41,068 bases of DNA, from NCBI GenBank assembly GCA_964615065.1, contig CAZTPM010000001.1, forward strand, positions 1 through 41,068. The letters run 5' to 3'. This stretch comes from Candidatus Woesearchaeota archaeon (GTDB lineage Archaea > Nanobdellota > Nanobdellia > Pacearchaeales > GW2011-AR1). This document shows positions 7,011 through 41,068 of this stretch, one piece after another. The stretch's first letter is position 1, and each line of letters starts with the position of its first letter. Under the pieces are notes generated by a model that searched no databases, was not told where the DNA came from, and worked only from the letters and a program-made list of their open reading frames with translations. The translations under genes and the position numbers were made by a program.

Positions 7011-9758
7011 ATGGTGAATTTATCAGAAAAAGAAACTAGAAAGAAAATTATAGACCCAATTTTAGAAAGAACTGGATGGAAGAAAGAATATATTAAAGAA
7101 GAAATTAATTCTGTGAAATCTAATTTCGGAACTAAAAAATTTGTTTTTTTTAAGAAAGATAATATAGAGGTCGGAGATAGATTTATTGATTATCTTCTTT
7201 TGGATGAAGATAATTCTCCTTTAGCTATTATTGAAGCAAAGAAAACATCGATAAGTGTTGAAAAGGGAGAAATTCAATCTAGAACCTATCGAGAAGATAT
7301 TGAGAAACAAACAAAAAAAAGAATCCCTATTTTTTTAACAAATGGGAAACAATGGTATTATGTTGACGAGAAAGATAGAAGAAGACAAGTTCCCCTTCCA
7401 TTTGAACAAAAAGATTTGCATAGGAGAGTTCATCTTTTTGAAAGAGAGCGAGATCCAACTAAAGTAAAGATTAAACCAGAGATTGTGGATAGAGATAGAA
7501 GTATAGAAGCAGTAAAGGTTATTTTAGAACATCTCGAAAAAGGAAATAGGTCCGCACTAATTAATATGGCCACAGGAACGGGGAAGACAAGAGTCGCTAT
7601 GGCAATTATAGACGTATTAATGAGATCAAATTCTGTTAGAAATGTTTTATTTATTGTAGATAGAATTTCTTTATCGAATCAAGCTAAAGAAAATGGGTTT
7701 AAAGAATTTTTTCCAGGAGAGCCTGTTTGTGAATTAAATGTTGAAGGATTTTCTGAAAGTGCTAGGCTTTATGTTTCAACCATTCAAACCTTAATGAGTG
7801 ATAAAAAGCCAAGAGGAAAATTTTATGAAAAATTTGGAATAGGCGCTTTTGATTTAATTGTTTATGATGAAGCCCATCGTTCTTATTATGATAAAAATAA
7901 TGATGTCTTAAAATATTTTGATGCTATCAAACTGGGTTTAACTGCAACCCCTTCAAAAAAAGAAGGGAAAGATACTTTTGAATTATTTGGTTGTGAAGAT
8001 AAAGAACCAACATATAAATATGATTATGATTCTGCTGTTGATGATGAAGTTCTAGCTCCTTATTCTGCAGAGGTCATTGAGACTAAGATTTTATCATTAG
8101 GGATAGAAGGAAAGAAATTAAGCAAAGAATTAAGATTTCAATTGGAAAAACAAGAAGAGAACCCCTATGATTTTCAAACTCCTGGAGCAAGATTTGAAAA
8201 ATTGTTTACAGATTCAAGAACAAATGAATTAATTGTTAGAGAGTTTATTGATAGGTGCTATAAAACAGATGATAGGGTTCCATGTAAGACTATCTTCTTT
8301 TGTGCGAGTGTTAAGCATGCTGAATCTTTAAAAAATATCTTTGATAGGCTTTATCCTAATTTAGCTAGAGAAGTAAGAGTTATTACTTCAGACAGAACCA
8401 GATATATGGATGAAGTTAGAAGATTCAAAAGAAACTCTACTCCGAGAATTGCTTTATCTGTCGGAGTTTTAGATACAGGTATTGATATTCCTGAAATTAT
8501 GAATTTGGTTTTTGTTAAACCTGTTTTTTCTTATATAAGATTCTGGCAAATGCTTGGAAGAGGAACTAGAAATTTAGAAACATGTAAGCATAAGGATTGG
8601 TTGCCTCATAAAGATGGAGTAGCTGTTAAAGATAATTTTCTTATTTTAGATTTTAAATTTGGAGAGCATTCAAATGTAGAGTTTCATGATTTAGATAGGA
8701 CAAGAGAAAAGTCCAAATTAATCGACGCTAAAACAAGAATCTTCTTAGAGCAGGTTGATTTGCTTGAAAAAGATTTAAAGGAAAATGAGAAGGAAGTTAT
8801 TGAAAAGGCGATTATAGAAACTGTGAGAAGTATTGACATTGATTCTCCTCTTGTTTTAGAAAAGAAAAATATAATCAAAAAAGTTATTTCTAAAAAATTT
8901 GATTTGAAAGAGCATGTCAAAGAATTGAGGGAAGAAATTGCTCCTTTACTTATTTATTCTAAATCTGAAAATTCAAAAGTTTATGCATTTATTGGAAAAT
9001 GTGTTAAGTTGTTTGACGCTATTAAAGAAGACTATAAGGATAAGATTTGGAAGATTGAAGAGTTTGTTAAAGAAAGAGTTGAGAATGTTTGGGAGAGAAG
9101 TTTGGAAGTGGTTAGAGAGAAAGATGAGCAAATAAAAAAAGTTTTGGGAGATGAATTTTGGCAAGACATAACTTTTGAAGATGTTGATTTCTTAATTAGA
9201 GAAATTGCTTCTTTAATGATTTATTATGAAATCTATGGAAAGAAGATGTTGAGGATTGATGCTCCTGATGTTGTTATTAATGTTGAAAAATTTGAGATGA
9301 AAGTTAAAGAAAATCCTAATTTTGAATATTTCTTAAATAGCAATCCTTTAATTAAAAAAATTAAAGAAAGTAAAGGAGTTACATCTAGAGAATTGCTTGA
9401 AATTGAAAAGAAACTTTCAAGTTTAAATTCTGCTTGGACAATTGAAAATATTCAAAATATTAGAAAAATAGATTTTGTATTATTTTTAAGACAGCTTTTA
9501 CAGGTAATTGATTTGCCTGACCCTCAAGAAATGATTAAGCAAGAATTTGATAAGTTTGTGATTAGCAGGAATGAGCATTATAATTCAGAGCAATTGAAAT
9601 TTCTGAGATTATTAAAACAGGTTTTTGTAAGAGCAAAGCATATTGAATTAAAGGATTTTGCAAAGCATCCTTTGACAGAAGAAAGGCCCTTGGATTTGTT
9701 TGAAAAAAAGCAGTTGATTGAGATTGTTGATAAGTGTAATAAGTTGAGGTGGCGGTGA
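7011..9758 (+). CDS. hsdR: Type I restriction enzyme R subunit (COG4096/EcoEI-like)
   Basis: HsdR_N-like N-terminus EKETRKKIIDPILERTGW. Helicase motifs MATGTGKTRVA (I), VYDEAHRS (II, DEAH), GLTATP (III) and QMLGRGTR (VI). Long helical C-terminal tail. Confidence 0.85.
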   Translation: MVNLSEKETRKKIIDPILERTGWKKEYIKEEINSVKSNFGTKKFVFFKKDNIEVGDRFIDYLLLDEDNSPLAIIEAKKTSISVEKGEIQSRTYREDIEKQTKKRIPIFLTNGKQWYYVDEKDRRRQVPLPFEQKDLHRRVHLFERERDPTKVKIKPEIVDRDRSIEAVKVILEHLEKGNRSALINMATGTGKTRVAMAIIDVLMRSNSVRNVLFIVDRISLSNQAKENGFKEFFPGEPVCELNVEGFSESARLYVSTIQTLMSDKKPRGKFYEKFGIGAFDLIVYDEAHRSYYDKNNDVLKYFDAIKLGLTATPSKKEGKDTFELFGCEDKEPTYKYDYDSAVDDEVLAPYSAEVIETKILSLGIEGKKLSKELRFQLEKQEENPYDFQTPGARFEKLFTDSRTNELIVREFIDRCYKTDDRVPCKTIFFCASVKHAESLKNIFDRLYPNLAREVRVITSDRTRYMDEVRRFKRNSTPRIALSVGVLDTGIDIPEIMNLVFVKPVFSYIRFWQMLGRGTRNLETCKHKDWLPHKDGVAVKDNFLILDFKFGEHSNVEFHDLDRTREKSKLIDAKTRIFLEQVDLLEKDLKENEKEVIEKAIIETVRSIDIDSPLVLEKKNIIKKVISKKFDLKEHVKELREEIAPLLIYSKSENSKVYAFIGKCVKLFDAIKEDYKDKIWKIEEFVKERVENVWERSLEVVREKDEQIKKVLGDEFWQDITFEDVDFLIREIASLMIYYEIYGKKMLRIDAPDVVINVEKFEMKVKENPNFEYFLNSNPLIKKIKESKGVTSRELLEIEKKLSSLNSAWTIENIQNIRKIDFVLFLRQLLQVIDLPDPQEMIKQEFDKFVISRNEHYNSEQLKFLRLLKQVFVRAKHIELKDFAKHPLTEERPLDLFEKKQLIEIVDKCNKLRWR

Positions 9759-9856
9759 AATTCATAAAATACGCAATTTATGAAAAAAGGTAAATCTTTG
9801 GTTTACTAAAAAACACGAATAGGAAGTTTTAAATAACCTTTTTGAGTGAGGAATGT

Positions 9857-10702
9857 ATGACAATTCAAAAATCTCAGGAAGAAAGTGATAGCATGATAGT
9901 CTCTTCTAAGTTGCCGCGAGAAGAGTTGCTCAACTTTAAGAAATTGTGTGATTTCGAGGACAAGACCCCTAGCAAGAAAATTAGGGAACTTATCAATCTG
10001 GAAGTTGACGATAGATTTGGGGGGATGTATAAGAGCAGATACGATAAAGAAAAAATAAGGCAGTTTCAAATTAGTGCAATTAATGATTATAATTCTAGCC
10101 AAAGAGTGGGAGATATTGCTAAAGTTAATCTTGTTGAAAGAACAGATGGGAAGTTTACTCAAATTGGTTTAAGACCCTTGATTGATGAAGATATTTTCTT
10201 GCCAAAAGGAAAAGTATATCCTGTTCTTCCTTCAATAGGGATGGATGTTGCAAATGGCGAGATGAATTTTTTAATAGGTCATATTTTAAAGGATGAGAAA
10301 ATACAAAGAGTAAGCATTATCAAGGAAAAACTTAAAGAATTTCCCAGAGAGATAAATTTCAGTGAATCTACTATTTTAATTTCTAATGATTTTTTCGTAG
10401 AACTTGCAATGTCTCTTATGCATAGAATTAAGTATGAAAATAATAAAATGATTCTTGACTTTCATCATAAATTAATGTTTGTTCCTGGAGAAGCCATGAG
10501 AAATAAAATAATTATAATTGAGGATGGAGCAGTCTTATGGGCGAAAGAAAAATTTCATAATGGGTTTACGGGTAAGGATGAAAGTTTAAATATTTCTATT
10601 AAGCCAAAAATAGGCGGAAAAGTAGATATTACTGTGAGAAGTGTTAATCGAATTAAAGCTCTCTACCCTGAGATGATTAAAATTTTGGAGGTTGGAGAAT
10701 GA
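9857..10702 (+). CDS. Ribbon-helix-helix (CopG/Arc-like) N-terminal domain protein with about 220-aa uncharacterised C-terminal domain
   Basis: The track ORF starts at TTG 9842. ATG 9857 is preceded by GTGAGGA. The segment MIVSSKLPREELLNFKKLCDFEDKTPSKKIRELI fits a beta-strand plus two-helix RHH pattern. I do not recognise the rest. Confidence 0.45.
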   Translation: MTIQKSQEESDSMIVSSKLPREELLNFKKLCDFEDKTPSKKIRELINLEVDDRFGGMYKSRYDKEKIRQFQISAINDYNSSQRVGDIAKVNLVERTDGKFTQIGLRPLIDEDIFLPKGKVYPVLPSIGMDVANGEMNFLIGHILKDEKIQRVSIIKEKLKEFPREINFSESTILISNDFFVELAMSLMHRIKYENNKMILDFHHKLMFVPGEAMRNKIIIIEDGAVLWAKEKFHNGFTGKDESLNISIKPKIGGKVDITVRSVNRIKALYPEMIKILEVGE

Positions 10703-11160
10703 AACAATTTGATTATTATATCTTTATTGACTATTCTGTAAATGTTATTGGATATATAATCCTTGAAAATAAAAAACTCTTTGAATTAATTCCTTTGATT
10801 TCTAAATTTGCACATTATAAGAATTTGAAGCACAAGAATACTTATATTCATTCTATTAAAAAAATAATTGAGAAGAATAATGTCTTAAGTTTTTTTGAAG
10901 GGTATAAAATCAGAGAAATGAGGCAGAACATAGAAATTTATATGAATGTTTTTGATTTTATCAAGAAGCATGATAATTGTATAATTTTTGTTTCAATAGA
11001 TGACAATGAATATTCTAACTTTAGGAAATTTGTCAATATTGTCGATGGAAGTAAAACAGTTATTAAAATAGAGAGTAAATTAATTAAGAATACTCCTGAA
11101 TACAGAGCAAGTCTTGTTTTGGATACTTTACTAAATATTGAGAGATTAAAAAATGGTTGA
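10699..11160 (+). CDS. Small (153 aa) hypothetical protein with nuclease-like acidic pattern (PIN-like or RNase H/YqgF-like); candidate toxin partner of the upstream RHH protein
   Basis: ATGA overlap with the upstream gene. N-terminal YYIFIDYS (D11) strand, IIFVSIDDNE (D101/D102), NIVDGS (D116) and LVLDTLL (D142). Fold assignment is by eye only. Confidence 0.35.
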   Translation: MKQFDYYIFIDYSVNVIGYIILENKKLFELIPLISKFAHYKNLKHKNTYIHSIKKIIEKNNVLSFFEGYKIREMRQNIEIYMNVFDFIKKHDNCIIFVSIDDNEYSNFRKFVNIVDGSKTVIKIESKLIKNTPEYRASLVLDTLLNIERLKNG

Positions 11161-11173
11161 AATAAAAATAAAA

Positions 11174-11258
11174 TGTAGGGTAAGGGCGTCCGTCAATCCT
11201 ACTCCCCATACCAACGCAAAGCGTATATGGCTTTCGTCAGGTCGCTTTCCCCTGCATG
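11174..11258. ncRNA. Isolated GC-rich (about 54% by hand count) structured intergenic element; candidate small RNA or recombination/regulatory site
   Basis: Imperfect 15-nt closing inverted repeat TGTAGGGTAAGGGCG / CGCTTTCCCCTGCA. It encloses the hairpin CCATA-CCA-ACGC-AAA-GCGT-A-TATGG. No ORF. Composition differs sharply from the flanks. Confidence 0.3.
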
Positions 11259-11319
11259 ATTATTTAAATTGTTTAAATTATTTAAATGTTTTGGTTGTTG
11301 GGAAAGTGGAGGTTGGGAG

Positions 11320-12015
11320 ATGAGTGAAGAGGAATTATTAAGCCAATTAGAAAGAGTAAAAGAACTTAATTCAGATTTAAAGAAAGAACTTCAAAATAAT
11401 CTTGCTTCTTACGATGTAACTTTAAAAACTAGAAATTTAACAGAAGAAATTTTTGTTAAACTTAGAATTTGTTTAGATAAATTAATTTTTTATTATCTTA
11501 ATAAAAATCATTATCTTGTTGATTTATCTAAAGTTTCTTTTCCAATTTCTAAAACACAAAATGATTTTAATAGTGTTATAACTAATTATGGATTAAAAAA
11601 TATAAATCAAATTCATCCTCAATTTTTTAGTTTATTGTTTGATTCTCAACCATTTTCATCAAAAGAAAAAGAAATCTTAACTATCTTGCATGAAAAAGGG
11701 TCTAAGGAAAAACATCAATTTTTGATTAAAGAAAAAAAAGAAACAAACCATATCCGAACAACTTTTAAAAGCCAAAATGGAGAAATTAGTTGGAGCAAAC
11801 AAGGAGTTTTTTTTGGAGAAGGAGTTTCTATGAATGGGGTTCCAATTAATCCAGCTACACAAGAACCAGCGTTTATACCCCCGACACATAAATTAATTAG
11901 GCATTATGAAATATCTATAAAACTTGTAGATAAAAATATAGAAATAACTTTTTTATGTGATTCCTTAATTAAATTAGTTAAGGAGATAGTTACAAAAACA
12001 TTTAAATTAAAATGA
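11320..12015 (+). CDS. Hypothetical 231-aa protein translationally coupled to hsdS
   Basis: GGAGG at 11308-11312, 7 nt before ATG 11320 (the track start at TTG 11269 is less likely). ATGA overlap with hsdS at 12012. Coiled-coil N-terminus. I recognise no motif. Confidence 0.5.
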   Translation: MSEEELLSQLERVKELNSDLKKELQNNLASYDVTLKTRNLTEEIFVKLRICLDKLIFYYLNKNHYLVDLSKVSFPISKTQNDFNSVITNYGLKNINQIHPQFFSLLFDSQPFSSKEKEILTILHEKGSKEKHQFLIKEKKETNHIRTTFKSQNGEISWSKQGVFFGEGVSMNGVPINPATQEPAFIPPTHKLIRHYEISIKLVDKNIEITFLCDSLIKLVKEIVTKTFKLK

Positions 12016-13148
12016 AAATTAAACAATTACCTCAAGGATGGAAAGAAGTTGAACTTGGAGAACTTTTGAATTACGAGCAACCAACAAAATACATTGTTGA
12101 AGATACAAATTATAATGATAATTATAACACGCCAGTTTTGACAGCAGGCAAATCATTTATTTTAGGGCACACAGATGAAACAGATGGAATTTATAATAAA
12201 TTACCCGTAATAATTTTTGATGATTTTACTACAGATAATAAATTTGTGAATTTTAAATTTAAAGTAAAGTCTAGTGCCATGAAATTATTAACTCCAAAAA
12301 ATAAAGAAATTGATTTAAAATTTATCTTCTTATTAATGCAGACAATTAAAGTTAATTCAATAACCCATAAAAGATATTATCTATCTAAATACAGAAACAT
12401 CAAAATCCCCCTCCCCCCACCCCCCACTCAAAAACAAATAGTTTCAATTTTAGAAAAAGCCGAAAAACTAAAACAAAAAAGAGAACAAGCCGATAAATTA
12501 ATGGAGGATTATTTGAAAAGTGTTTTTAATGAAATGTTTTTGAAAAGAAAAGGAGAGTTTAAAATAAAAAAATTAGTAGATATAACTAAAAAGATAACTG
12601 ATGGAAAGCATGGAGATTGCGAGAATGAAGAAAATTCAGGATATTATTTTATTAGTGCAAAAGATATTTTTAAGGGGGAAGTTCATTATGAAAATTCTAG
12701 ACAAATAAAAAAAGAAGGATATTTAGAAGTCAATAAAAGAGTAAATCTTGAAATAAAAGATGTTTTGATTACAAATAGTGGAACAATTGGAAAAACGGCA
12801 ATAATGAATAATAGAGAGAATGTGGATAAAACAACATTTCAAAAAAGTGTCGCTATAATAAAACCAAATAAAAAATTAATACAATCTATTTATTTAAAAA
12901 ATTTTTTAGATACAATCATAATTAATTTAATGAGCACTTCTTCAGGATCTTCTCAAAAAAATCTTTTATTAAAAGATATAAGAAATATCAAAATCCCCCT
13001 CCCGCCTCTTGCTCTTCAAAAAAAATTTGCTTCTATTGTTGAGCGGGTTGAAAAATTAAAAGAAAAACAAAAACAATCTAAAGAAGAAATAAGTCAGATG
13101 TTTGATGTGCTGATGCAGAAGGCGTTTAAGGGGGCGTTGATGAAATGA
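12012..13148 (+). CDS. hsdS: Type I R-M specificity subunit
   Basis: Two target-recognition halves, each followed by a conserved helix: IKIPLPPPPTQKQIVSILEKAEKLKQKREQ and IKIPLPPLALQKKFASIVERVEKLKEKQKQ. Confidence 0.85.
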   Translation: MKIKQLPQGWKEVELGELLNYEQPTKYIVEDTNYNDNYNTPVLTAGKSFILGHTDETDGIYNKLPVIIFDDFTTDNKFVNFKFKVKSSAMKLLTPKNKEIDLKFIFLLMQTIKVNSITHKRYYLSKYRNIKIPLPPPPTQKQIVSILEKAEKLKQKREQADKLMEDYLKSVFNEMFLKRKGEFKIKKLVDITKKITDGKHGDCENEENSGYYFISAKDIFKGEVHYENSRQIKKEGYLEVNKRVNLEIKDVLITNSGTIGKTAIMNNRENVDKTTFQKSVAIIKPNKKLIQSIYLKNFLDTIIINLMSTSSGSSQKNLLLKDIRNIKIPLPPLALQKKFASIVERVEKLKEKQKQSKEEISQMFDVLMQKAFKGALMK

Positions 13149-14011: not shown

Positions 14012-15493
14012 ATGCTACACACAGAACTCAAATCACAAATAAACAAACTATGGGATAAGTTTTGGTCTGGTGGAATCTCTAATCCTCTTCAGGCAATTGA
14101 ACAAATATCTTTCTTGATTTTCATGAAAAGATTTGAAGATATGGATGTTCGAAGAGAACAAGAGGCAAGTTTAACAGAAGAAGAATTTATATCCATGTTT
14201 AAAAAACATGAAAATTGTCGTTGGAGTGTTTGGAGTGAATATAGTGCCGATAAGATTTTAGACCATGCAAGAGATGTTGTATTCCCTTTTATGAGAAATT
14301 TAGGGGATGGAGATTCTTTTTCAAAATATATGAATAGTGCTAATTTTGAAATTCCCACAGCATCATTACTTATAGAGGGTGTTAAGATAATTAACGATAT
14401 GCACATTAAAGAACAAAACCAAGATGCTCAGGGAGATATGTATGAATATTTATTAAGTGAATTGCAAACAGCTGGAAAAAATGGGCAATTCAGAACACCA
14501 AGACATATAATTAAAATGATGGTTGAATTAACTAAACCACAATACGGGGATTTAATTTTAGATCCTGCCTGCGGAACAGCAGGTTTTTTAATAAATGCTT
14601 ATGAATATATCTTAAAACAAAATACTTCTAAAGACCTAATAAAAAAAGATGAAGAAGGAAATGAATATAATTTCAAGGCAGATAAATTAAACTCTAAGCA
14701 GAAACAAATTCTTGATGAAGAAAGCTTATATGGTTTTGATATTGACCAAACCATGACAAGAATAGCTTTGATGAATTTAATGATGCATGGAATAAGCAAA
14801 CCAAATTTAGAACAATTAAATACTCTTTCAAAAAGATATAATCAAGATAATACTTATGATTTAATCTTAGCAAATCCCCCTTTCAAAGGTTCTATTGATG
14901 AATCAGAAAGCAGTGATAATCTTACAATAAAAAGCAAAAAAACAGAATTATTATTTTTAGAATTAATGTATAATTCCTTAACAAATGGGGGAAGATGTGC
15001 AGTTATTGTTCCAGATGGGGTTTTGTTTGGTAATTCAAAAGCCCATAAATTAATTAGGAAATTACTTTTAGAAGATTGTAGATTAGATGCTATAATAAAA
15101 ATGCCTTCTGGAGTTTTCAAACCTTATGCTGGAGTTTCTACAGCTGTTTTATTTTTCACAAAAGGAGAGCCAACAAAAAAAGTTTGGTTTTATGATATGC
15201 AAAATGATGGTTTTAGTTTGGATGATAAAAGAACAAAAATAGAAGGAAGTAATCTCCCAGACATAATTGAAAGATTCAAAAAAAGAAAGGAAGAATCTAA
15301 TGAAGATAGAAAAAAGAAACACTTCTTTGTGCCAATTGAAGAAATAAAAGAAAATGATTATGACCTAAGCATTTCTAAATACAAGGAAATAGAATATGAA
15401 GAAAAAGTATATGAAAAACCAGAGATTATAAAAAAGAAAACTCTAAAAATTGAGGAAGAGATTGTTAAGGGATTGAAAGAGTTGAAGTTGTAA
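14012..15493 (+). CDS. hsdM: Type I R-M N6-adenine DNA methyltransferase subunit
   Basis: HsdM_N-like LWDKFWSGGISNPLQAIEQISFLIFMKR. SAM motif I DPACGTAGFL. Motif IV LANPPFKGS. Confidence 0.9.
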   Translation: MLHTELKSQINKLWDKFWSGGISNPLQAIEQISFLIFMKRFEDMDVRREQEASLTEEEFISMFKKHENCRWSVWSEYSADKILDHARDVVFPFMRNLGDGDSFSKYMNSANFEIPTASLLIEGVKIINDMHIKEQNQDAQGDMYEYLLSELQTAGKNGQFRTPRHIIKMMVELTKPQYGDLILDPACGTAGFLINAYEYILKQNTSKDLIKKDEEGNEYNFKADKLNSKQKQILDEESLYGFDIDQTMTRIALMNLMMHGISKPNLEQLNTLSKRYNQDNTYDLILANPPFKGSIDESESSDNLTIKSKKTELLFLELMYNSLTNGGRCAVIVPDGVLFGNSKAHKLIRKLLLEDCRLDAIIKMPSGVFKPYAGVSTAVLFFTKGEPTKKVWFYDMQNDGFSLDDKRTKIEGSNLPDIIERFKKRKEESNEDRKKKHFFVPIEEIKENDYDLSISKYKEIEYEEKVYEKPEIIKKKTLKIEEEIVKGLKELKL

Positions 15494-15557: not shown

Positions 15558-15571
15558 ACCCTTTCCAACAA

Positions 15572-15603
15572 AACATTTATAAATGTTATAACAATGTTAT
15601 AAC
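15572..15603 (+). promoter_or_regulatory. Candidate operator: 16-nt perfect palindrome AACATTTATAAATGTT overlapping tandem ATGTTATAAC x2, directly before the AbrB-domain gene
   Basis: Palindrome at 15572-15587. ATGTTATAAC at 15583-15592 and 15594-15603. A related TTGTTATAAT at about 15515. Confidence 0.4.
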
Positions 15604-15604
15604 T

Positions 15605-16369
15605 ATGGAACAAGAATTAATTAAACCGATTGTTAAGGTGGGGAATAGTGCAGGAGTAGTTTTGCCTAAGGAGTGGCTTGGTGGGAAAGCAAAAATAAAA
15701 CTTGTTAAAAAACCAATTAATATAAAGAAAGATGTTTTAGAGATTCTTGCAGCGTATTTATATGATGTTCAGGGAATTTATTTAGTTGGCAGTTATGCTC
15801 GTGAAGAACAAACAGATAAAAGTGATGTTGATGTTTTAGTTATAACTAATAAAACAAATAAAAAAATTGAACAAGGAAAGTATAATCTTATTTTGATTTC
15901 TAAAGAACAAGTTGAAAATTCTTTAAGAAATAATGTTTTGCCCCTTCTTCCTATGTTAAAAGAGGCAAAGGTTGTTTTAAATGCTGAATTAATTGTGGGA
16001 TATAAAAAAACTGGTTTGACAAAAAGAAATTTAAAATTTCATATAGAAACAACAAAGTCTGCTATGAGGGTGGATAAAGAATCCATTGAAATTAAAGAGG
16101 AAGAGAATGAAAGCATTTCAGATAATATTATGTATTCTTTGGTTTTAAGATTACGTGAATTATATATTGTAGATTGCTTAATAAAAAATAAAAAATTAAC
16201 TACAAAAGGATTTTTGGAATTAGTTAAAACAATTGTTGGTTCTATTGAACCTTATAATTCTTATCTTCGCTCAAAAAATAAAAACAAGGTCAAGAAAGTT
16301 GTGTCTGTTAATGAAGCAAGAAAAATTTATGATTATATAATTAAGAATATAGATAAGCAAATAAAATGA
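15605..16369 (+). CDS. Fusion protein: SpoVT/AbrB-like DNA-binding domain plus minimal nucleotidyltransferase (MNT) domain plus helical C-terminus with an RNxxxH (HEPN-like) motif
   Basis: AbrB-type VKVGNSAGVVLPKEW. MNT signature GSYAREEQTDKSDVDVLVI (GS-x10-DxD). RNLKFH at residues 141-146 (nt 16025-16042). Confidence 0.6.
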   Translation: MEQELIKPIVKVGNSAGVVLPKEWLGGKAKIKLVKKPINIKKDVLEILAAYLYDVQGIYLVGSYAREEQTDKSDVDVLVITNKTNKKIEQGKYNLILISKEQVENSLRNNVLPLLPMLKEAKVVLNAELIVGYKKTGLTKRNLKFHIETTKSAMRVDKESIEIKEEENESISDNIMYSLVLRLRELYIVDCLIKNKKLTTKGFLELVKTIVGSIEPYNSYLRSKNKNKVKKVVSVNEARKIYDYIIKNIDKQIK

Positions 16370-20345: not shown

Positions 20346-21091
20346 TTTGCAAAACTATTCTGTATTTTATATAATTCCTTTATTTGATCCAAGCTATAAC
20401 CTTCTAGTTTTTTTTCAGGCGCTTCCCATACGCCTTCTTTTTTGTATTTTTCAACTGTTTGTTTTAATACTTCAAAATATTGTTCTTGATTAAATTTTTG
20501 AAGAGGATTTGAAATTAATTTTGCATTATGTCTTTTTTGGTAATTTAATAAAAATTCCAAGTAAGGGATATAAGATAAAGGAGTTAATTTTTCATAATCT
20601 TCCTTATTCATGAGGAAACCAACAATATTTTTTTCATTTATAATAAAACAATGCATGCAAGGTGCATAGTAAGTTTCTTCTTGATTTTTGACTATTCTGT
20701 TTTCTAAATCTTTTTTTGTGTTAAATTGCATAGCTCCTTGAAATAATAAGGCCCTCTCTTCTTCAGCTCTTTTTGAGGGATTATACAAATAGTTTTTTTG
20801 TTCAATTCTTTTGATTATTCCCTCTTTGGTTAATTCTTCCTCATTCAATGAATAATGTGTAATTTCTTTTATCCCTATTTCTAAGTTTTTTATTTCTCCA
20901 TCTTTCAAGAGATAATCTTCAAGCTTTTCAGCAGGTTTTGTTTCTTCTTTTTTAGTGGTTGGATTACTTTCATTAACTATATTTTTAATGAAATCAATTT
21001 GGGGATAAGCAGATTTTTGAGCATGAACTATTTTTGGTGTTCCAATTATTAATGATAGACCGATTCCTAATAAATATAATAATTTTTTCAT
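20342..21091 (-). CDS. Secreted hypothetical protein
   Basis: Signal peptide MKKLLYLLGIGLSLIIGTPKIVHA. 4-nt overlap with the downstream gene on the minus strand. Confidence 0.4.
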   Translation of the reverse strand: MKKLLYLLGIGLSLIIGTPKIVHAQKSAYPQIDFIKNIVNESNPTTKKEETKPAEKLEDYLLKDGEIKNLEIGIKEITHYSLNEEELTKEGIIKRIEQKNYLYNPSKRAEEERALLFQGAMQFNTKKDLENRIVKNQEETYYAPCMHCFIINEKNIVGFLMNKEDYEKLTPLSYIPYLEFLLNYQKRHNAKLISNPLQKFNQEQYFEVLKQTVEKYKKEGVWEAPEKKLEGYSLDQIKELYKIQNSFAK

Positions 21092-21136
21092 AAGAAAAGA
21101 TATTTTTTATTGATTATAAATCTTTTTGTTCTTAAA

Positions 21137-25107: not shown

Positions 25108-25212
25108 ATGGCAAGAGGAAATCTTGAAACAAGAAATAAACGAAAAGATAAAAAAAAGGAAAAAAAGAAACATCCTTATAAAATAGGTGGAAAAAGGAGA
25201 ACTCAAAAATAA
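25108..25212 (+). CDS. Very basic 34-aa ORF (not in track); coding status uncertain
   Basis: Hand translation MARGNLETRNKRKDKKKEKKKHPYKIGGKRRTQK. Confidence 0.2.
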   Translation: MARGNLETRNKRKDKKKEKKKHPYKIGGKRRTQK

Positions 25213-25239
25213 TTTAAATTGTTTTTGATTTTATTTTAA

Positions 25240-26289
25240 ATGTATGAGGTGATTTTTTTATTGGTCTTGGGAATGTTGTGGGTTTTATTTGCAACTTTGC
25301 AAGATTTGAAAACTAATGAAGTTGCTAATTGGGTTAATTTTTCTTTGATAATTTTTGCTCTTGGTTTTAGGTTTTTTTATGATTTCTTTGAAAATTCGAC
25401 TCAAAATGTTTTTGGAACTCTTCTTGTTTTTCTAATAACTTTTTTTATATTAATGGGAATGATTTTGTTTTTTGAAGCTTCTTTTAAAAAATTCAAAAAC
25501 GAAGTTTGGTTTTTTATTGGTGTTTTCTGTATAGGACTTATTTTGTTATTTTTTGAATTTAAATTCCAAATTCTTTTTAATTTATTTTCTCAAAATAGTT
25601 TTTCTTTTTTATATTTTGGTGTTTTAGGTTTGGTAATTTTCTTTTTAATTGGGAATTTCTTGTATTATAGCAGATTATTTGCAGGAGGAGATGCAAAACT
25701 CATGACTGCTCTTGGTTCTATTTTGTTTTTCTCTGAAAGTTTATCTTCCAATATAAATAATTTGGTTTTGTTCTTGGTTTTGTTCTTTTTTGTTGGGACA
25801 CTTTATGGTTTAATTGCAAGTTTTTATTTTTGTTTAAAGAATTTAAAGAATTTTAAAAAAGAATTTTGGAAAAGATTACAAAAAATAAAAAAAACTATTT
25901 ATGGATTTATGATTTTTGGTTTGGTTTTAATGGCAATAGGTTTTACTGAAAATTTATTTTTTGTTTTTGGGATTCTGATTTTTCTTTTTCCTGGTCTCTA
26001 TTTATTTGCAAAATCTATTGATGAGGTTTGTATGATAAAAAAAATAAAAACAGAAAAATTAACACAAGGGGATTGGCTTTATAAAAATTTGAAAATTGGA
26101 AATAAGATGATTGAAGCAAATTGGAATGGCTTGGCAAAAAAACAAATTGATTTTATTAAAAAGAAAAAGGATTTTGTTTTAATCAGAAAGGGAATCCCTT
26201 ATGTGCCAACTTTTTTAATTAGTTTTATTTTCTTGGTTGCCGTTAGGTTTTTTGGATTCTTAAAAAATATTTTTCTTTTTTTAAATTAA
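25240..26289 (+). CDS. Archaeal prepilin/preflagellin peptidase (A24 family, FlaK/PibD-like)
   Basis: First Asp motif TLQDLKTNEV and second Asp motif FAGGDAKLM. Polytopic membrane protein. C-terminal domain ending in GIPYVPTFL. Confidence 0.85.
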   Translation: MYEVIFLLVLGMLWVLFATLQDLKTNEVANWVNFSLIIFALGFRFFYDFFENSTQNVFGTLLVFLITFFILMGMILFFEASFKKFKNEVWFFIGVFCIGLILLFFEFKFQILFNLFSQNSFSFLYFGVLGLVIFFLIGNFLYYSRLFAGGDAKLMTALGSILFFSESLSSNINNLVLFLVLFFFVGTLYGLIASFYFCLKNLKNFKKEFWKRLQKIKKTIYGFMIFGLVLMAIGFTENLFFVFGILIFLFPGLYLFAKSIDEVCMIKKIKTEKLTQGDWLYKNLKIGNKMIEANWNGLAKKQIDFIKKKKDFVLIRKGIPYVPTFLISFIFLVAVRFFGFLKNIFLFLN

Positions 26290-38346: not shown

Positions 38347-38424
38347 GAATTATTTAAGTGATTTCTTATTTAATAATGTTTTCAATCAAAAATTTTAAAA
38401 ATAGGTAAGATGTAGTTTTTTTAG

Positions 38425-38497
38425 AGCCCCATAGTTCAGTGGTCAAGAATTCAAGGTTTTGGACCTTGAGACCCAGGTTCGAATCCTGGTGGGGCTA
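38425..38497 (+). tRNA. tRNA-Gln (anticodon TTG)
   Basis: Folded by hand. 7-bp acceptor AGCCCCA/TGGGGCT with an A1-U72 pair. D arm GTTC/GAAT. Anticodon stem CAAGG/CCTTG with loop TT-TTG-GA. T arm CCAGG-TTCGAAT-CCTGG. Discriminator A. CCA is not encoded. Confidence 0.9.
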
Positions 38498-40236: not shown

Positions 40237-41043
40237 ATGCCAAATCCACGTTTTCTTCAAACAGCAGAACGTTGGAAGAACAAAGAGATTCCGACTGAAA
40301 GAGAGAAAAAACAAAGACCAATTAAACAAAAAACTCCTTTTGCAACAGGGAATGTTAATTATAGTTTCTTAGAAGGAAATTCCGGAAAACAAATTTTAGA
40401 AGAATATAATCAAAGAGTAAAAGCAGATTACAAAGATAGTTCTGCTTTGAAAGTTTTATCTTTTGCAGACAATGTTGTTCAGGGAAGCAATCCATTTGCA
40501 TTTGTTTTGCTTAACAAAATTTTAACTCAGCAAAAAATGAGAATAGCAACCCCTGCTGATTTAGAAAGAGCATTAGAAAAAGAAGCAATTAATTTAAGAG
40601 ATACTTATGGGGATTCTGGATTGGTTTTGAGAGGTGGGGGAGAACCAAACCAATACTTAGCAAGAGATTTAATTAATCAAGTTAAACAAAAAGGAAGTTT
40701 GCAATATCCTTTAATGATTCCATTAGAAGGATTGGATTTAAAATATGACTCAAATTCACCGCATAATTTATCTTTTCAATTAACTGATTTTTCAGAATTG
40801 ATTTATGCTTCACAATTAAATAAGATAAATCAGAGTAAGAAGTTTAATCGTGCAGACGAACAAGGACTCCCAATTTTTGAGGATAATGGATCAAGAACCT
40901 TGTATTCAAATGAAGATGGAGGACTTTGTAGGCTGTGTCGTGGCGGGGTTCTTGGCCTGGTCGCTGGGGACTGGTATCTCGCTAGTTCGGGCGACTATGG
41001 CCGGGTAATTGTTTGTGCCGAAGGCACGCGCGCAAAAAATTAA
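40237..41043 (+). CDS. Hypothetical 268-aa protein; partner of the AAA+ ATPase; C-terminal 40 aa encoded by an anomalously GC-rich segment
   Basis: Starts 1 nt after the upstream stop. I see no VWA (DxSxS) motif or any other motif. The tail is LCRLCRGGVLGLVAGDWYLASSGDYGRVIVCAEGTRAKN. Confidence 0.45.
   Translation: MPNPRFLQTAERWKNKEIPTEREKKQRPIKQKTPFATGNVNYSFLEGNSGKQILEEYNQRVKADYKDSSALKVLSFADNVVQGSNPFAFVLLNKILTQQKMRIATPADLERALEKEAINLRDTYGDSGLVLRGGGEPNQYLARDLINQVKQKGSLQYPLMIPLEGLDLKYDSNSPHNLSFQLTDFSELIYASQLNKINQSKKFNRADEQGLPIFEDNGSRTLYSNEDGGLCRLCRGGVLGLVAGDWYLASSGDYGRVIVCAEGTRAKN
40925..41035. other. GC spike (about 60-65% by hand count) with hairpins, inside the 3' end of CDS 40237..41043
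   Basis: GGCC-TG-GTCGC...GCGAC-TAT-GGCC (40954-41002). GTGCC-GAA-GGCAC (41015-41027). Codons GGC, CTG, GTC, CGC, GCC and ACG are atypical for this window. Confidence 0.35.
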
Positions 41044-41068
41044 TAAAATGGTAAACAAAAGATTTTTA

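Follow-up and report, generated by a model that had tools for sequence, protein, structure and literature searches.

In type III toxin–antitoxin systems (ToxIN, CptIN and TenpIN), a nuclease gene is tightly linked to the gene of a small structured RNA. The antitoxin is a tandem repeat array encoded upstream of the toxin gene, with a terminator between the two, and the toxin itself processes the RNA; the pairs are cognate, mobile, multi-copy and associated with defense islands, and they tolerate orphan RNAs but not unprotected toxin genes. Convergent RNAs that overlap at their 3′ ends characterize certain type I pairs, such as Enterococcus par RNA I/RNA II and Bacillus bsrG/SR4. Type I toxins are small hydrophobic peptides, and antisense pairing by itself does not require loops that stay invariant over distances at the phylum level. 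A further association of RNA and protein involves DUF3800, which is reported to have an RNase H2-like fold (PMC7736814, PMC10910872). Eleven structured RNA motifs that are unrelated to one another (DUF3800-I to -XI), together with drum and skipping-rope, are reported to accompany DUF3800 genes and have no known function; the associated motifs occur in bacteria and archaea, on either side and either strand of the gene (Weinberg et al. 2017, PMC5737381). Type VII retrons, in turn, combine a reverse transcriptase and a non-coding RNA with a DUF3800 effector (Mestre et al. 2020, PMC7736814). A literature search returned no functional data on the DUF3800 RNAs. Here we describe a GC-rich element at positions 11174-11258 of a 41,068-nucleotide (nt) stretch of DNA, hereafter the window (contig CAZTPM010000001.1 of assembly GCA_964615065.1, Candidatus Woesearchaeota archaeon), which lies just downstream of a gene for a 153-amino-acid (aa) protein. 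The DUF3800-associated RNA motifs are the nearest known kind of element.

Homologues of the window's proteins come from metagenome-assembled Nanoarchaeota, Pacearchaeota and Woesearchaeota, which belong to the DPANN archaea. The element is a structured, conserved, non-coding RNA strictly linked to the 153-aa protein gene, and we regard it, with considerable confidence, as a dedicated RNA partner of that protein family, whatever the sign of its effect. Our preferred interpretation, to which we assign a probability of roughly 45%, is that the small RNA and the gene, which encodes a predicted RNase H-fold protein, constitute a DPANN two-gene module in which the RNA serves as antidote or regulator. 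The task of the pair is probably connected with a toxin and its antidote or with defense. The window copy of the module is lodged in a type I restriction–modification (R-M) operon, between hsdR and hsdS.

Structure and conservation of the element

The original prediction had pointed to an island of about 54% G+C against a background near 30%, and the measured values agree. The element has a G+C fraction of 0.541 over 85 nt (11174-11258), compared with a mean of 0.292 (standard deviation, SD, 0.064) for all 85-nt windows of the 41-kb stretch, which places it ~3.9 SD above the mean. The final 200 nt are the only part of the window with higher G+C; the tRNA-Gln gene peaks at 0.506. The long-range imperfect inverted repeat and the hairpin enclosed by it, both read from the letters at that stage, are present and correspond to the plus-strand minimum-free-energy fold, in which nested outer helices surround an inner hairpin at -25.6 kcal/mol. 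From the outside inwards, this fold has a 7-bp helix, a second helix of 6+2 bp, a large internal loop and a hairpin in two parts; within helix P2, AGGGCG (11183-11188) pairs with CGCTTT (11243-11248). A folding energy no better than that of shuffled controls, named there as a refuting condition, is not observed for the plus strand, which is more stable than its dinucleotide shuffles (z = -2.56; 1 of 200 was equally stable). The window contains a single copy of the element, with no second match at up to 3 mismatches.

Thirteen metagenomic contigs (L001-L013), from groundwater and lake sites, share the region with an identical core and are therefore uninformative on variation. Conservation was assessed through the 153-aa protein, whose family exceeds 317 clusters, using a protein-led sample of one DPANN genome per species (75 loci). 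Wherever a locus extends downstream of the gene, it has a homologous GC-rich element that begins 0-45 nt past the stop codon or contains it. A covariance model, R1, built from 73 copies gave 78 hits in these loci, all on the strand of the gene and either just past it or overlapping its stop codon, and the module is found across Pacearchaeota, Woesearchaeota and Nanoarchaeota. Homologues of the downstream 231-aa protein (12 clusters) precede hsdS in every case, and no trace of the element was found in their loci, including L021, which encodes a 97%-identical protein; R1 also had no hits in 231-aa/hsdS loci lacking the nuclease gene. Linkage to the downstream 231-aa/hsdS unit was thus ruled out. 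Because the element tracks the 153-aa gene and the 231-aa/hsdS homologues lack it, the proposal of a cis-regulatory leader for the hsdS operon finds no support. Of the three roles put forward originally, the evidence agrees best with that of a small RNA acting with adjacent proteins, and it is the upstream 153-aa gene, not the hsdS side, that supplies the partner.

In the alignment of 73 sequences, the helices vary, and the invariant bases sit in two unpaired strands, C-GTC-A-TCCTACT and TTCGTC together with the G two bases further on. This G is invariant in 73/73 sequences, and the intervening A is at least 90% conserved. Pairing is kept in 84.7% of cells, against 34-53% when the partners are slid; 21 of 24 pairs are changed on both sides, and none of 500 shuffles reaches the observed covariation score (0.336, compared with 0.164 in shuffles). 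Individual column pairs illustrate the exchange: 17-96 (GC 38, AU 35), 18-95 (GC 42, CG 26), 21-92 (CG 62, UA 11) and 39-79 (GC 40, AU 32). The hairpin differs in length by 1-80 nt with compensatory changes, and the anchor-to-anchor span that encloses it ranges from 38 to 118 nt. Helices that vary and still pair, combined with invariant unpaired loops, are the signature of an RNA. A second, metagenomic sample was located by the RNA pattern alone and covers at least 119 loci containing 82 R1 hits. Among the matches listed, these 82 copies keep 85.3% of cells paired (38-53% when slid), show changes on both sides in 18 of 20 pairs and have a score that 0 of 500 shuffles reach, values that are biased towards the structure by the alignment of the copies to the model. 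The element is thus conserved in related genomes with covarying pairs, and the strong covariation in both samples bears out the earlier suggestion of a structured RNA. The other refuting condition named at that stage, absence of conservation or covariation in relatives, therefore does not hold. The apical hairpin accepts large insertions (L050, L065, L067 and L092), among them a 20-nt branch with a cUUCGg loop and, in L065 (3455-3613), ~80 extra nt. The core is unchanged in these copies.

Searches for known RNA families were negative. Across the whole window, Rfam 15 at gathering thresholds returned tRNA-Gln at 38425 as its sole hit and none on the element, and a permissive scan (E <= 10) of 11000-11450 on both strands gave only noise with E ~1 or worse. 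The families left unmatched by the element include DUF3800-I to -XI, drum, skipping-rope, C/D and H/ACA sRNAs and ribozymes. In 14 related loci, Rfam detected tRNAs and RNase P only, and in L048 nothing at E <= 1. ARAGORN found no tRNA or tmRNA at the element, and the RF00005 cloverleaf was likewise negative; together, ARAGORN and Rfam confirm the initial remark that the sequence resembles no tRNA, C/D-box or other familiar RNA. Inspected by eye, the sequence did not consistently fit a tRNA cloverleaf, C/D box, H/ACA, K-turn, bulge-helix-bulge or attC. A literature search found no description of the RNA in DPANN archaea.

Promoter signals, strand and genomic setting

The promoter consensus of the organism consists of a B recognition element (BRE; C[AC]AAA[AC]) and a TATA box (TTTAWA), which lie 21-25 nt before the tRNA-Gln gene and three leaderless genes; tRNA genes of related loci have the same promoter architecture and spacing. 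In 64 of 75 copies, TTTAAAyyTTTCGG is found to the right of the element, 35-42 nt past TTCGTCAG. Its minus-strand reading, CCGAAArr-TTTAAAT/TTTATAAA(A), has the form of a canonical RNA-gene promoter and lies 20-23 nt ahead of the P1 end. Its spacing and purine-rich BRE side agree with those of tRNA genes and leaderless genes of these archaea. Calibrated on the tRNA genes, the purine-rich BRE side and the asymmetry of the TATA box point leftwards, at the element, and a divergent copy on a viral contig (L101) retains this promoter. Promoter sites in the window lie at 15569-15605, 25204-25240, 21091-21128 and 38387-38425, and the genes at 15605 (+), 25240 (+) and 21091 (-) appear leaderless. Three TTTAAAT boxes stand in tandem with a 9-nt period at 11263-11287, as they do in L032; only the last adjoins the minus-strand BRE-like CCAAAAC.

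On the question of strand, wobble pairs, energies, RNAalifold and tetraloops conflict, and the promoter evidence alone is one-sided. Several structural features favor the minus strand. P4 columns 40-78 and 41-77 read U-A/U.G/C-G and A-U/G.U/G-C there, whereas the plus strand has C.A/A.C mismatches in 30 of 73 copies; RNAalifold gives -28.3 for the minus and -24.7 for the plus strand; the minus-strand loops place AGUA opposite GAA in a loop E/sarcin-ricin-like pattern with tandem G.A; and GAAA, GCAA and CUUG tetraloops occur in variants. Other observations weigh against it. Mean folding z-scores of eight copies are -2.03 for the plus and -1.05 for the minus strand, 46 of 75 copies fold more stably as the plus strand, and the minus strand of the window copy is on par with its shuffles (z = -0.27 to 0.0). 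Additionally, 63 of 73 sequences share a G.U pair at columns 15-98 that exists on the plus strand only, the cUUCGg tetraloop of the insertion variants is a plus-strand feature, and the orientation of the element is always that of the gene, as for a 3′ untranslated region (UTR) element. Upstream of the element the A fraction averages 0.55, and the U-tract there is weak evidence for a terminator because the same bases encode a Lys-rich tail in an AT-rich genome. Finally, the strand, the ends and the expression of the RNA are all predicted from sequence. The eight strongly covarying core pairs comprise 482 Watson-Crick, 2 G.U and 4 A.C combinations; pairs nearly free of wobbles on either strand would be expected if both strands must fold, one in the mRNA 3′ UTR and the other in a convergent small RNA. 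On balance, we lean towards the minus strand giving rise to a dedicated transcript.

Table 1 Features of the element and its surroundings, in window coordinates
Feature	Position	Strand	Evidence or remark
Structured RNA element, 83 nt between helix ends	11174-11256	- (favored)	Covariance model R1, 85.7 bits at 11170-11261; covariation
P1 left arm, TGTAGGG	11174-11180		Pairs with 11250-11256; alignment A2 columns 5-11 with 101-107; 6/7 pairs changed on both sides
P2/P3 left arm, AGGGCG-T-CC	11183-11191		Pairs with 11240-11248; covarying columns 17-96, 18-95, 21-92
Conserved unpaired strand GTCAATCCTACTCC; minus-strand reading GGAGUAGGAUUGAC, includes AGUA	11192-11205		Invariant C22, T24, C25, C29, T31, A32, T34 in 73 sequences
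Variable apical hairpin P4/P5, CCATA-CCA-ACGC-AAA-GCGT-A-TATGG	11206-11230		5/5 P4 and 3/4 P5 pairs changed on both sides
Conserved unpaired strand CTTTCGTCA; minus-strand reading UGACGAAAG, includes GAA and UGA	11231-11239		Invariant TTCGTC in 73/73
P3/P2 right arm, GG-T-CGCTTT	11240-11248		Pairs with 11183-11191
P1 right arm, CCCTGCA	11250-11256		Pairs with 11174-11180
U-rich tract UUUUAUUUUUAUUU, possible terminator	11160-11173	-	Overlaps nuclease stop codon
Promoter-like BRE and TATA, CCAAAAC-ATTTAAAT	11280-11294	-	Aimed at the element, 23 nt from 11256 (P1 end)
153-aa partner gene, predicted RNase H-like fold, probably a nuclease	10699-11160	+	>317 homologues; AlphaFold2, Foldseek
281/286-aa gene, ribbon-helix-helix-like N-terminus, translationally coupled to nuclease gene	9842-10702	+	Locus-specific companion
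Spurious 56-aa open reading frame across the element	11153-11323	+	Frame analysis
Uncharacterized 231-aa gene	11320-12015	+	
hsdR	7011-9758	+	
hsdS	12012-13148	+	Followed by two small genes
hsdM	14012-15493	+	

All genes of the R-M operon around the element lie on the plus strand (Table 1). In a few loci, small open reading frames (ORFs) that precede the nuclease gene match residues 1-64 of the 281-aa protein, and in several loci the ribbon-helix-helix ORF overlaps the start of the nuclease gene by 4 nt; a 4-nt overlap of a ribbon-helix-helix gene with the next gene is the layout of classical toxin–antitoxin operons. The 281-aa gene was ruled out as a conserved third component, because nothing but its ribbon-helix-helix-like N-terminus is seen again, and that in a minority of loci. 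In most cases the nuclease gene stands alone, with its own BRE/TATA 21-22 nt before a leaderless ATG. Among the neighbors of the module are VapBC-like and DUF3800 genes and a type I R-M operon. Within the window, the 254-aa protein encoded beside hsdM (15605-16369) combines an AbrB/MazE- or DUF2080-like N-terminus with an MNT/HalB-like nucleotidyltransferase domain and is a further toxin–antitoxin or defense-type gene of the island. The G+C maximum of the window (0.635 over 85 nt) falls at 40864-41062, in the 3′ end of the ORF 40237-41043 (…GLCRLCRGGVLGLVAGDWYLASSGDYGRVIVCAEGTRAKN), and has no Rfam hit.

The partner protein and the function of the module

Pfam, NCBIfam and PADLOC gave nothing significant for the 153-aa protein of the window (0 hits in Pfam). 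Among 42 family members, Pfam yielded weak NYN matches in 15 (best E 1.8e-4) and DUF3800 (PF12686) matches in two (E ~0.15). Jackhmmer seeded with DUF3800 proteins did not recruit the family, hhalign of the family against DUF3800 gave a probability of 0.6%, and a profile search of PDB sequences did not find RNase H, its best match (E 0.05) being unrelated. Sequence-level homology to DUF3800, NYN or RNase H is thus not demonstrable. AlphaFold2, supplied with the family alignment, predicted a globular alpha/beta protein with a predicted local distance difference test (pLDDT) score of 92.7 and a predicted template modeling (pTM) score of 0.88. The top Foldseek matches of this model are RNase HII from Thermococcus and Archaeoglobus and human RNase H2A (3puf), with E 1.7e-5, probability 1.0 and template modeling (TM) scores of 0.5-0.6. 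The model accordingly suggests an RNase H-like fold, closest to RNase HII/H2 at fold level only. Three acidic residues are invariant, D11 (in FIDYSE), D101 and D142, and would be candidate catalytic carboxylates; the protein is probably a nuclease.

RNA-led copies reveal how gene and RNA part company. The upstream gene was scored among the matches listed in the 66 copies with at least 470 nt of upstream room: it is adjacent in 43, reduced to a 24-codon remnant in 1 and absent in 22. The best-scoring RNA-led copy among these matches is itself an orphan, and orphan copies keep the flanking promoter motif. Partial decay is seen as well: an in-frame internal deletion leaves ~40 codons of the gene in L096, only the last 45 codons persist in L095, and a decayed gene lies in L157, each beside an intact RNA. 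An intact 153-aa gene lacking the RNA was never found in loci with downstream sequence. This asymmetry between orphans and remnants is the pattern expected of an antidote. Five IMG/VR viral contigs also carry the conserved core (L097 2897-2984, L098 3984-4051, L099 3459-3543, L100 2207-2254, L101 10017-10067), arranged as CCGTCAATCCTACTAAC-hairpin-GGnTTCGTCAGG with differing outer helices and no 153-aa gene nearby; these might be virus-borne mimics or relatives of the RNA.

Under the preferred reading, an RNA of ~83-95 nt would be made from its own minus-strand BRE/TATA promoter (11280-11294), with transcription starting at the P1 end (~11256) and stopping in the U-rich tract over the nuclease stop codon. 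The RNA gene would converge with the nuclease gene, and its transcript would be fully complementary to the nuclease 3′ UTR, an arrangement that we hold to be fairly probable on the strength of the promoter signals. The invariant unpaired strands would form a binding surface for the nuclease. Through it the RNA would restrain the enzyme as antidote or regulator, possibly also by pairing with the 3′ end of the mRNA, and loss of the RNA would release the nuclease, a scheme mixing type III (RNA–protein) and type I (antisense) toxin–antitoxin features. An antidote or regulatory role is tentative. Four observations make it the preferred one: orphans and remnants show the asymmetry described, the promoter is strong and dedicated, a ribbon-helix-helix gene sometimes takes the classical antitoxin position, and the neighborhoods are rich in defense and toxin–antitoxin genes. 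Two points tell against it: the role is argued from the asymmetry and from analogy, and toxicity, nuclease activity and RNA binding of the 153-aa protein are putative.

Two rival explanations accept the RNA and assign it another task, and we consider each of them unlikely. The RNA may be a positive cofactor of the RNase H-fold protein, namely a scaffold, activator, specificity subunit or processed substrate. The strict linkage and the invariant loops would suit such a role, many unrelated structured RNAs are also found beside the genes of DUF3800 proteins, which reportedly share an RNase H2-like fold (PMC5737381, PMC10910872), and several RNA copies per contig could act in trans. However, the RNA varies in its helices and hairpin tip and lacks a variable segment that resembles a guide, and intact RNAs beside decayed genes, together with orphans amounting to about one third of the RNA-led loci among the matches listed, are more easily explained by an antidote. 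Alternatively, the plus strand may be functional as a structured 3′ UTR of the nuclease mRNA, acting as stabilizer, terminator or autoregulatory site, with the promoter serving the downstream gene. Consistent with this, the element is always on the strand of the gene, the stop codon often falls within P1, plus-strand z-scores are better, the G.U at 15-98 and a tandem wobble at 16-97 exist only on the plus strand, and insertion variants contain a UUCG tetraloop. A 3′ UTR does not readily account for the 22 of 66 RNA-led copies that lack the gene while keeping structure, high scores and promoter spacing, nor for the leftward direction of the BRE side and TATA asymmetry under the tRNA-gene calibration. 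Moreover, ribosomes terminating at stop codons within P1 would melt that helix, and P4 would contain tandem C.A/A.C mismatches in 40% of copies.

The remaining explanations, at the level of DNA or of protein coding, are unlikely to a greater degree. A mobile cassette end, a miniature inverted-repeat element or a recombination site such as an integron attC, which we judge very improbable, would agree with several copies per genome in varied contexts, with an imperfect inverted repeat and with the cassette-like arrays in L048, L055 and L173, where downstream segments are repeated. Free change of the helices with pairing kept, combined with conserved bases that are unpaired, is nevertheless the opposite of terminal repeats recognized by transposases, and the hairpin varies in length with compensatory changes. 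For the same reason, helices that change sequence and still pair around invariant loops, the recombination site at an insertion boundary envisaged in the original prediction is unsupported. The attC core GTTRRRY/RYYYAAC is absent from the element, whose ends, ATAGGG...CCCTAT or TAGA...TCTA, covary and contain no GTT/AAC, and no integrase gene was detected among the Pfam-scanned window ORFs of at least 100 aa near the element. The same early description placed the element in an intergenic gap; it does lie between the nuclease-like gene and the hsdS side, but a 56-aa ORF spans the gap. Its ATG and the upstream stop overlap by 8 nt, its TGA partly coincides with the ATG of the next gene, and it is annotated as a gene in five metagenome contigs (L001, L003, L005, L006 and L007), which would fit a protein translationally coupled to both neighbors. 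The reading frame does not hold across homologues. Divided by 3, the spacing of the conserved halves leaves a remainder of 1 in 35 copies, of 2 in 36 and of 0 in 4 (n=75), so that both halves cannot share one reading frame; only 45 of 75 copies keep the frame of the window's ORF open, and 13 have no open frame at all. PADLOC and NCBIfam returned nothing for the 56-aa sequence. The protein was rejected because its frame is not preserved and the indels are not multiples of three, and a coding function is hardly conceivable. The ORF reads as an artefact of a GC-rich stretch in an AT-rich genome, and the element causes a false gene call in public metagenome annotations.

The antidote reading can be extended to a DPANN family of RNA-controlled RNase H-fold nucleases, organized as self-contained two-gene cassettes of a leaderless nuclease gene and a convergent, mirror-structured RNA, which would act as a toxin with an RNA antidote or in abortive infection, unrelated pairs being interchangeable in the slot behind hsdR of type I R-M operons. 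We regard this wider picture as rather unlikely. If true, it would be the first archaeal class of RNA–protein toxin–antitoxin systems and would supply a working hypothesis for the bacterial DUF3800, drum and skipping-rope RNAs.

Sister RNA families and comparison with known systems

The slot behind hsdR is filled differently in sister type I R-M loci, by a DUF3800 gene in L019 and by a 172-aa gene with DUF3800-like end motifs in L017, each followed by its own distinct GC-rich structured element and the same promoter motif. Three different pairs of nuclease and RNA at the same position in related type I R-M operons suggest a role in defense or in stabilizing defense islands. Further element families were observed. 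The second (…CTACTGGTCTATCC…GGCACCTTTCGGA…TGTAACA; L019 4306-4400, L076 3553-3650, L168 minus strand near 450-600) lies right after true DUF3800 genes or beside the main element, shows visible compensatory changes, has no Rfam hit and is followed ~20 nt to the right by a TATA/TTTnG motif. The third (CCAGnACCTGTATGTACT…GTACAGGCTTTACCTGTTA; L048 2258-2330, L055 2875-2950, L173 3430-3510) follows a 212-aa DUF3800 gene in L048 and yields spurious 51-aa ORF calls. The fourth (…GAAACGCCrArCC…TACTGC; L016/L017 4348-4440, L064 3590-3660) follows the 172-aa gene (end motifs QIDKSGSD … SLIDDAG); in L017 it lies in the slot behind hsdR that the module studied here takes up in the window. Cassette arrays comprising the 153-aa type A, NYN 238-aa, DUF3800 212-aa and 152-aa type B genes are found in L048 (1-3306), L055 (2400-4700) and L173 (3100-5000). 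Behind each cassette of L048, a promoter recurs together with the 5′ part of a glycosyltransferase gene (MNILFITRSCSKNKGGKEVYN…), a fragment that also occurs once after the L055 array; the arrays look like repeated insertion or duplication of cassettes at one target.

The element thus represents a well-supported class of structured RNA for which neither the RNA (Rfam) nor the protein partner (Pfam) is covered, with more than 150 copies seen in all, the metagenomic part being a lower bound. Non-coding RNAs of DPANN archaea are almost unexplored, and the class ties in with the puzzle of why RNase H2-like, DUF3800-type proteins accompany many unrelated complex RNAs. A 153-aa protein and an 83-nt RNA in a simple, fixed architecture make a small, tractable pair for deciding between antidote, cofactor and sensor. 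This archaeal form, with its minimal protein, should interest specialists in RNA motifs and defense systems, while not being categorically new.

Compared with the described systems, the module most closely resembles the DUF3800-associated motifs. As in those, a compact, highly conserved structured RNA with covariation tracks the gene of a small protein with a predicted RNase H2-like fold, and many unrelated RNAs stand beside related proteins, here at least three further GC-rich families after DUF3800 or DUF3800-like genes. In contrast to those motifs, the element is matched by no Rfam model, its partner is not a member of Pfam DUF3800 (PF12686), it has a fixed position and orientation on the same side, just past the stop codon, and it occurs in a DPANN lineage with archaeal BRE/TATA signals instead of Rho-independent terminators. 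Because sequence membership in DUF3800 is not demonstrable, the module is better said to work like these systems than to be a member of them. With type VII retrons it shares a protein of predicted RNase H2-like fold and a structured non-coding nucleic acid in a defense context; unlike them, it lacks the msr/msd architecture, and no reverse transcriptase was found in the Pfam-scanned window ORFs, neighbors in related loci not having been screened for one. The parallel with type III toxin–antitoxin systems lies in a putative nuclease gene tightly linked to a small structured RNA, in mobile, multi-copy, cognate pairs associated with defense islands and in the occurrence of the RNA without the gene but never the reverse. 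Unlike type III, the RNA is single and non-repeated, lies downstream in all 78 cases and is probably convergent, and the partner is predicted to have an RNase H-like instead of a ToxN/Kid-like fold. Under the minus-strand model, the small RNA would converge with the mRNA and be complementary to it over a structured 3′ region, as in type I pairs; the module would differ from these in its partner, predicted to be a soluble 153-aa RNase H-fold protein, and in its invariant loop sequences.

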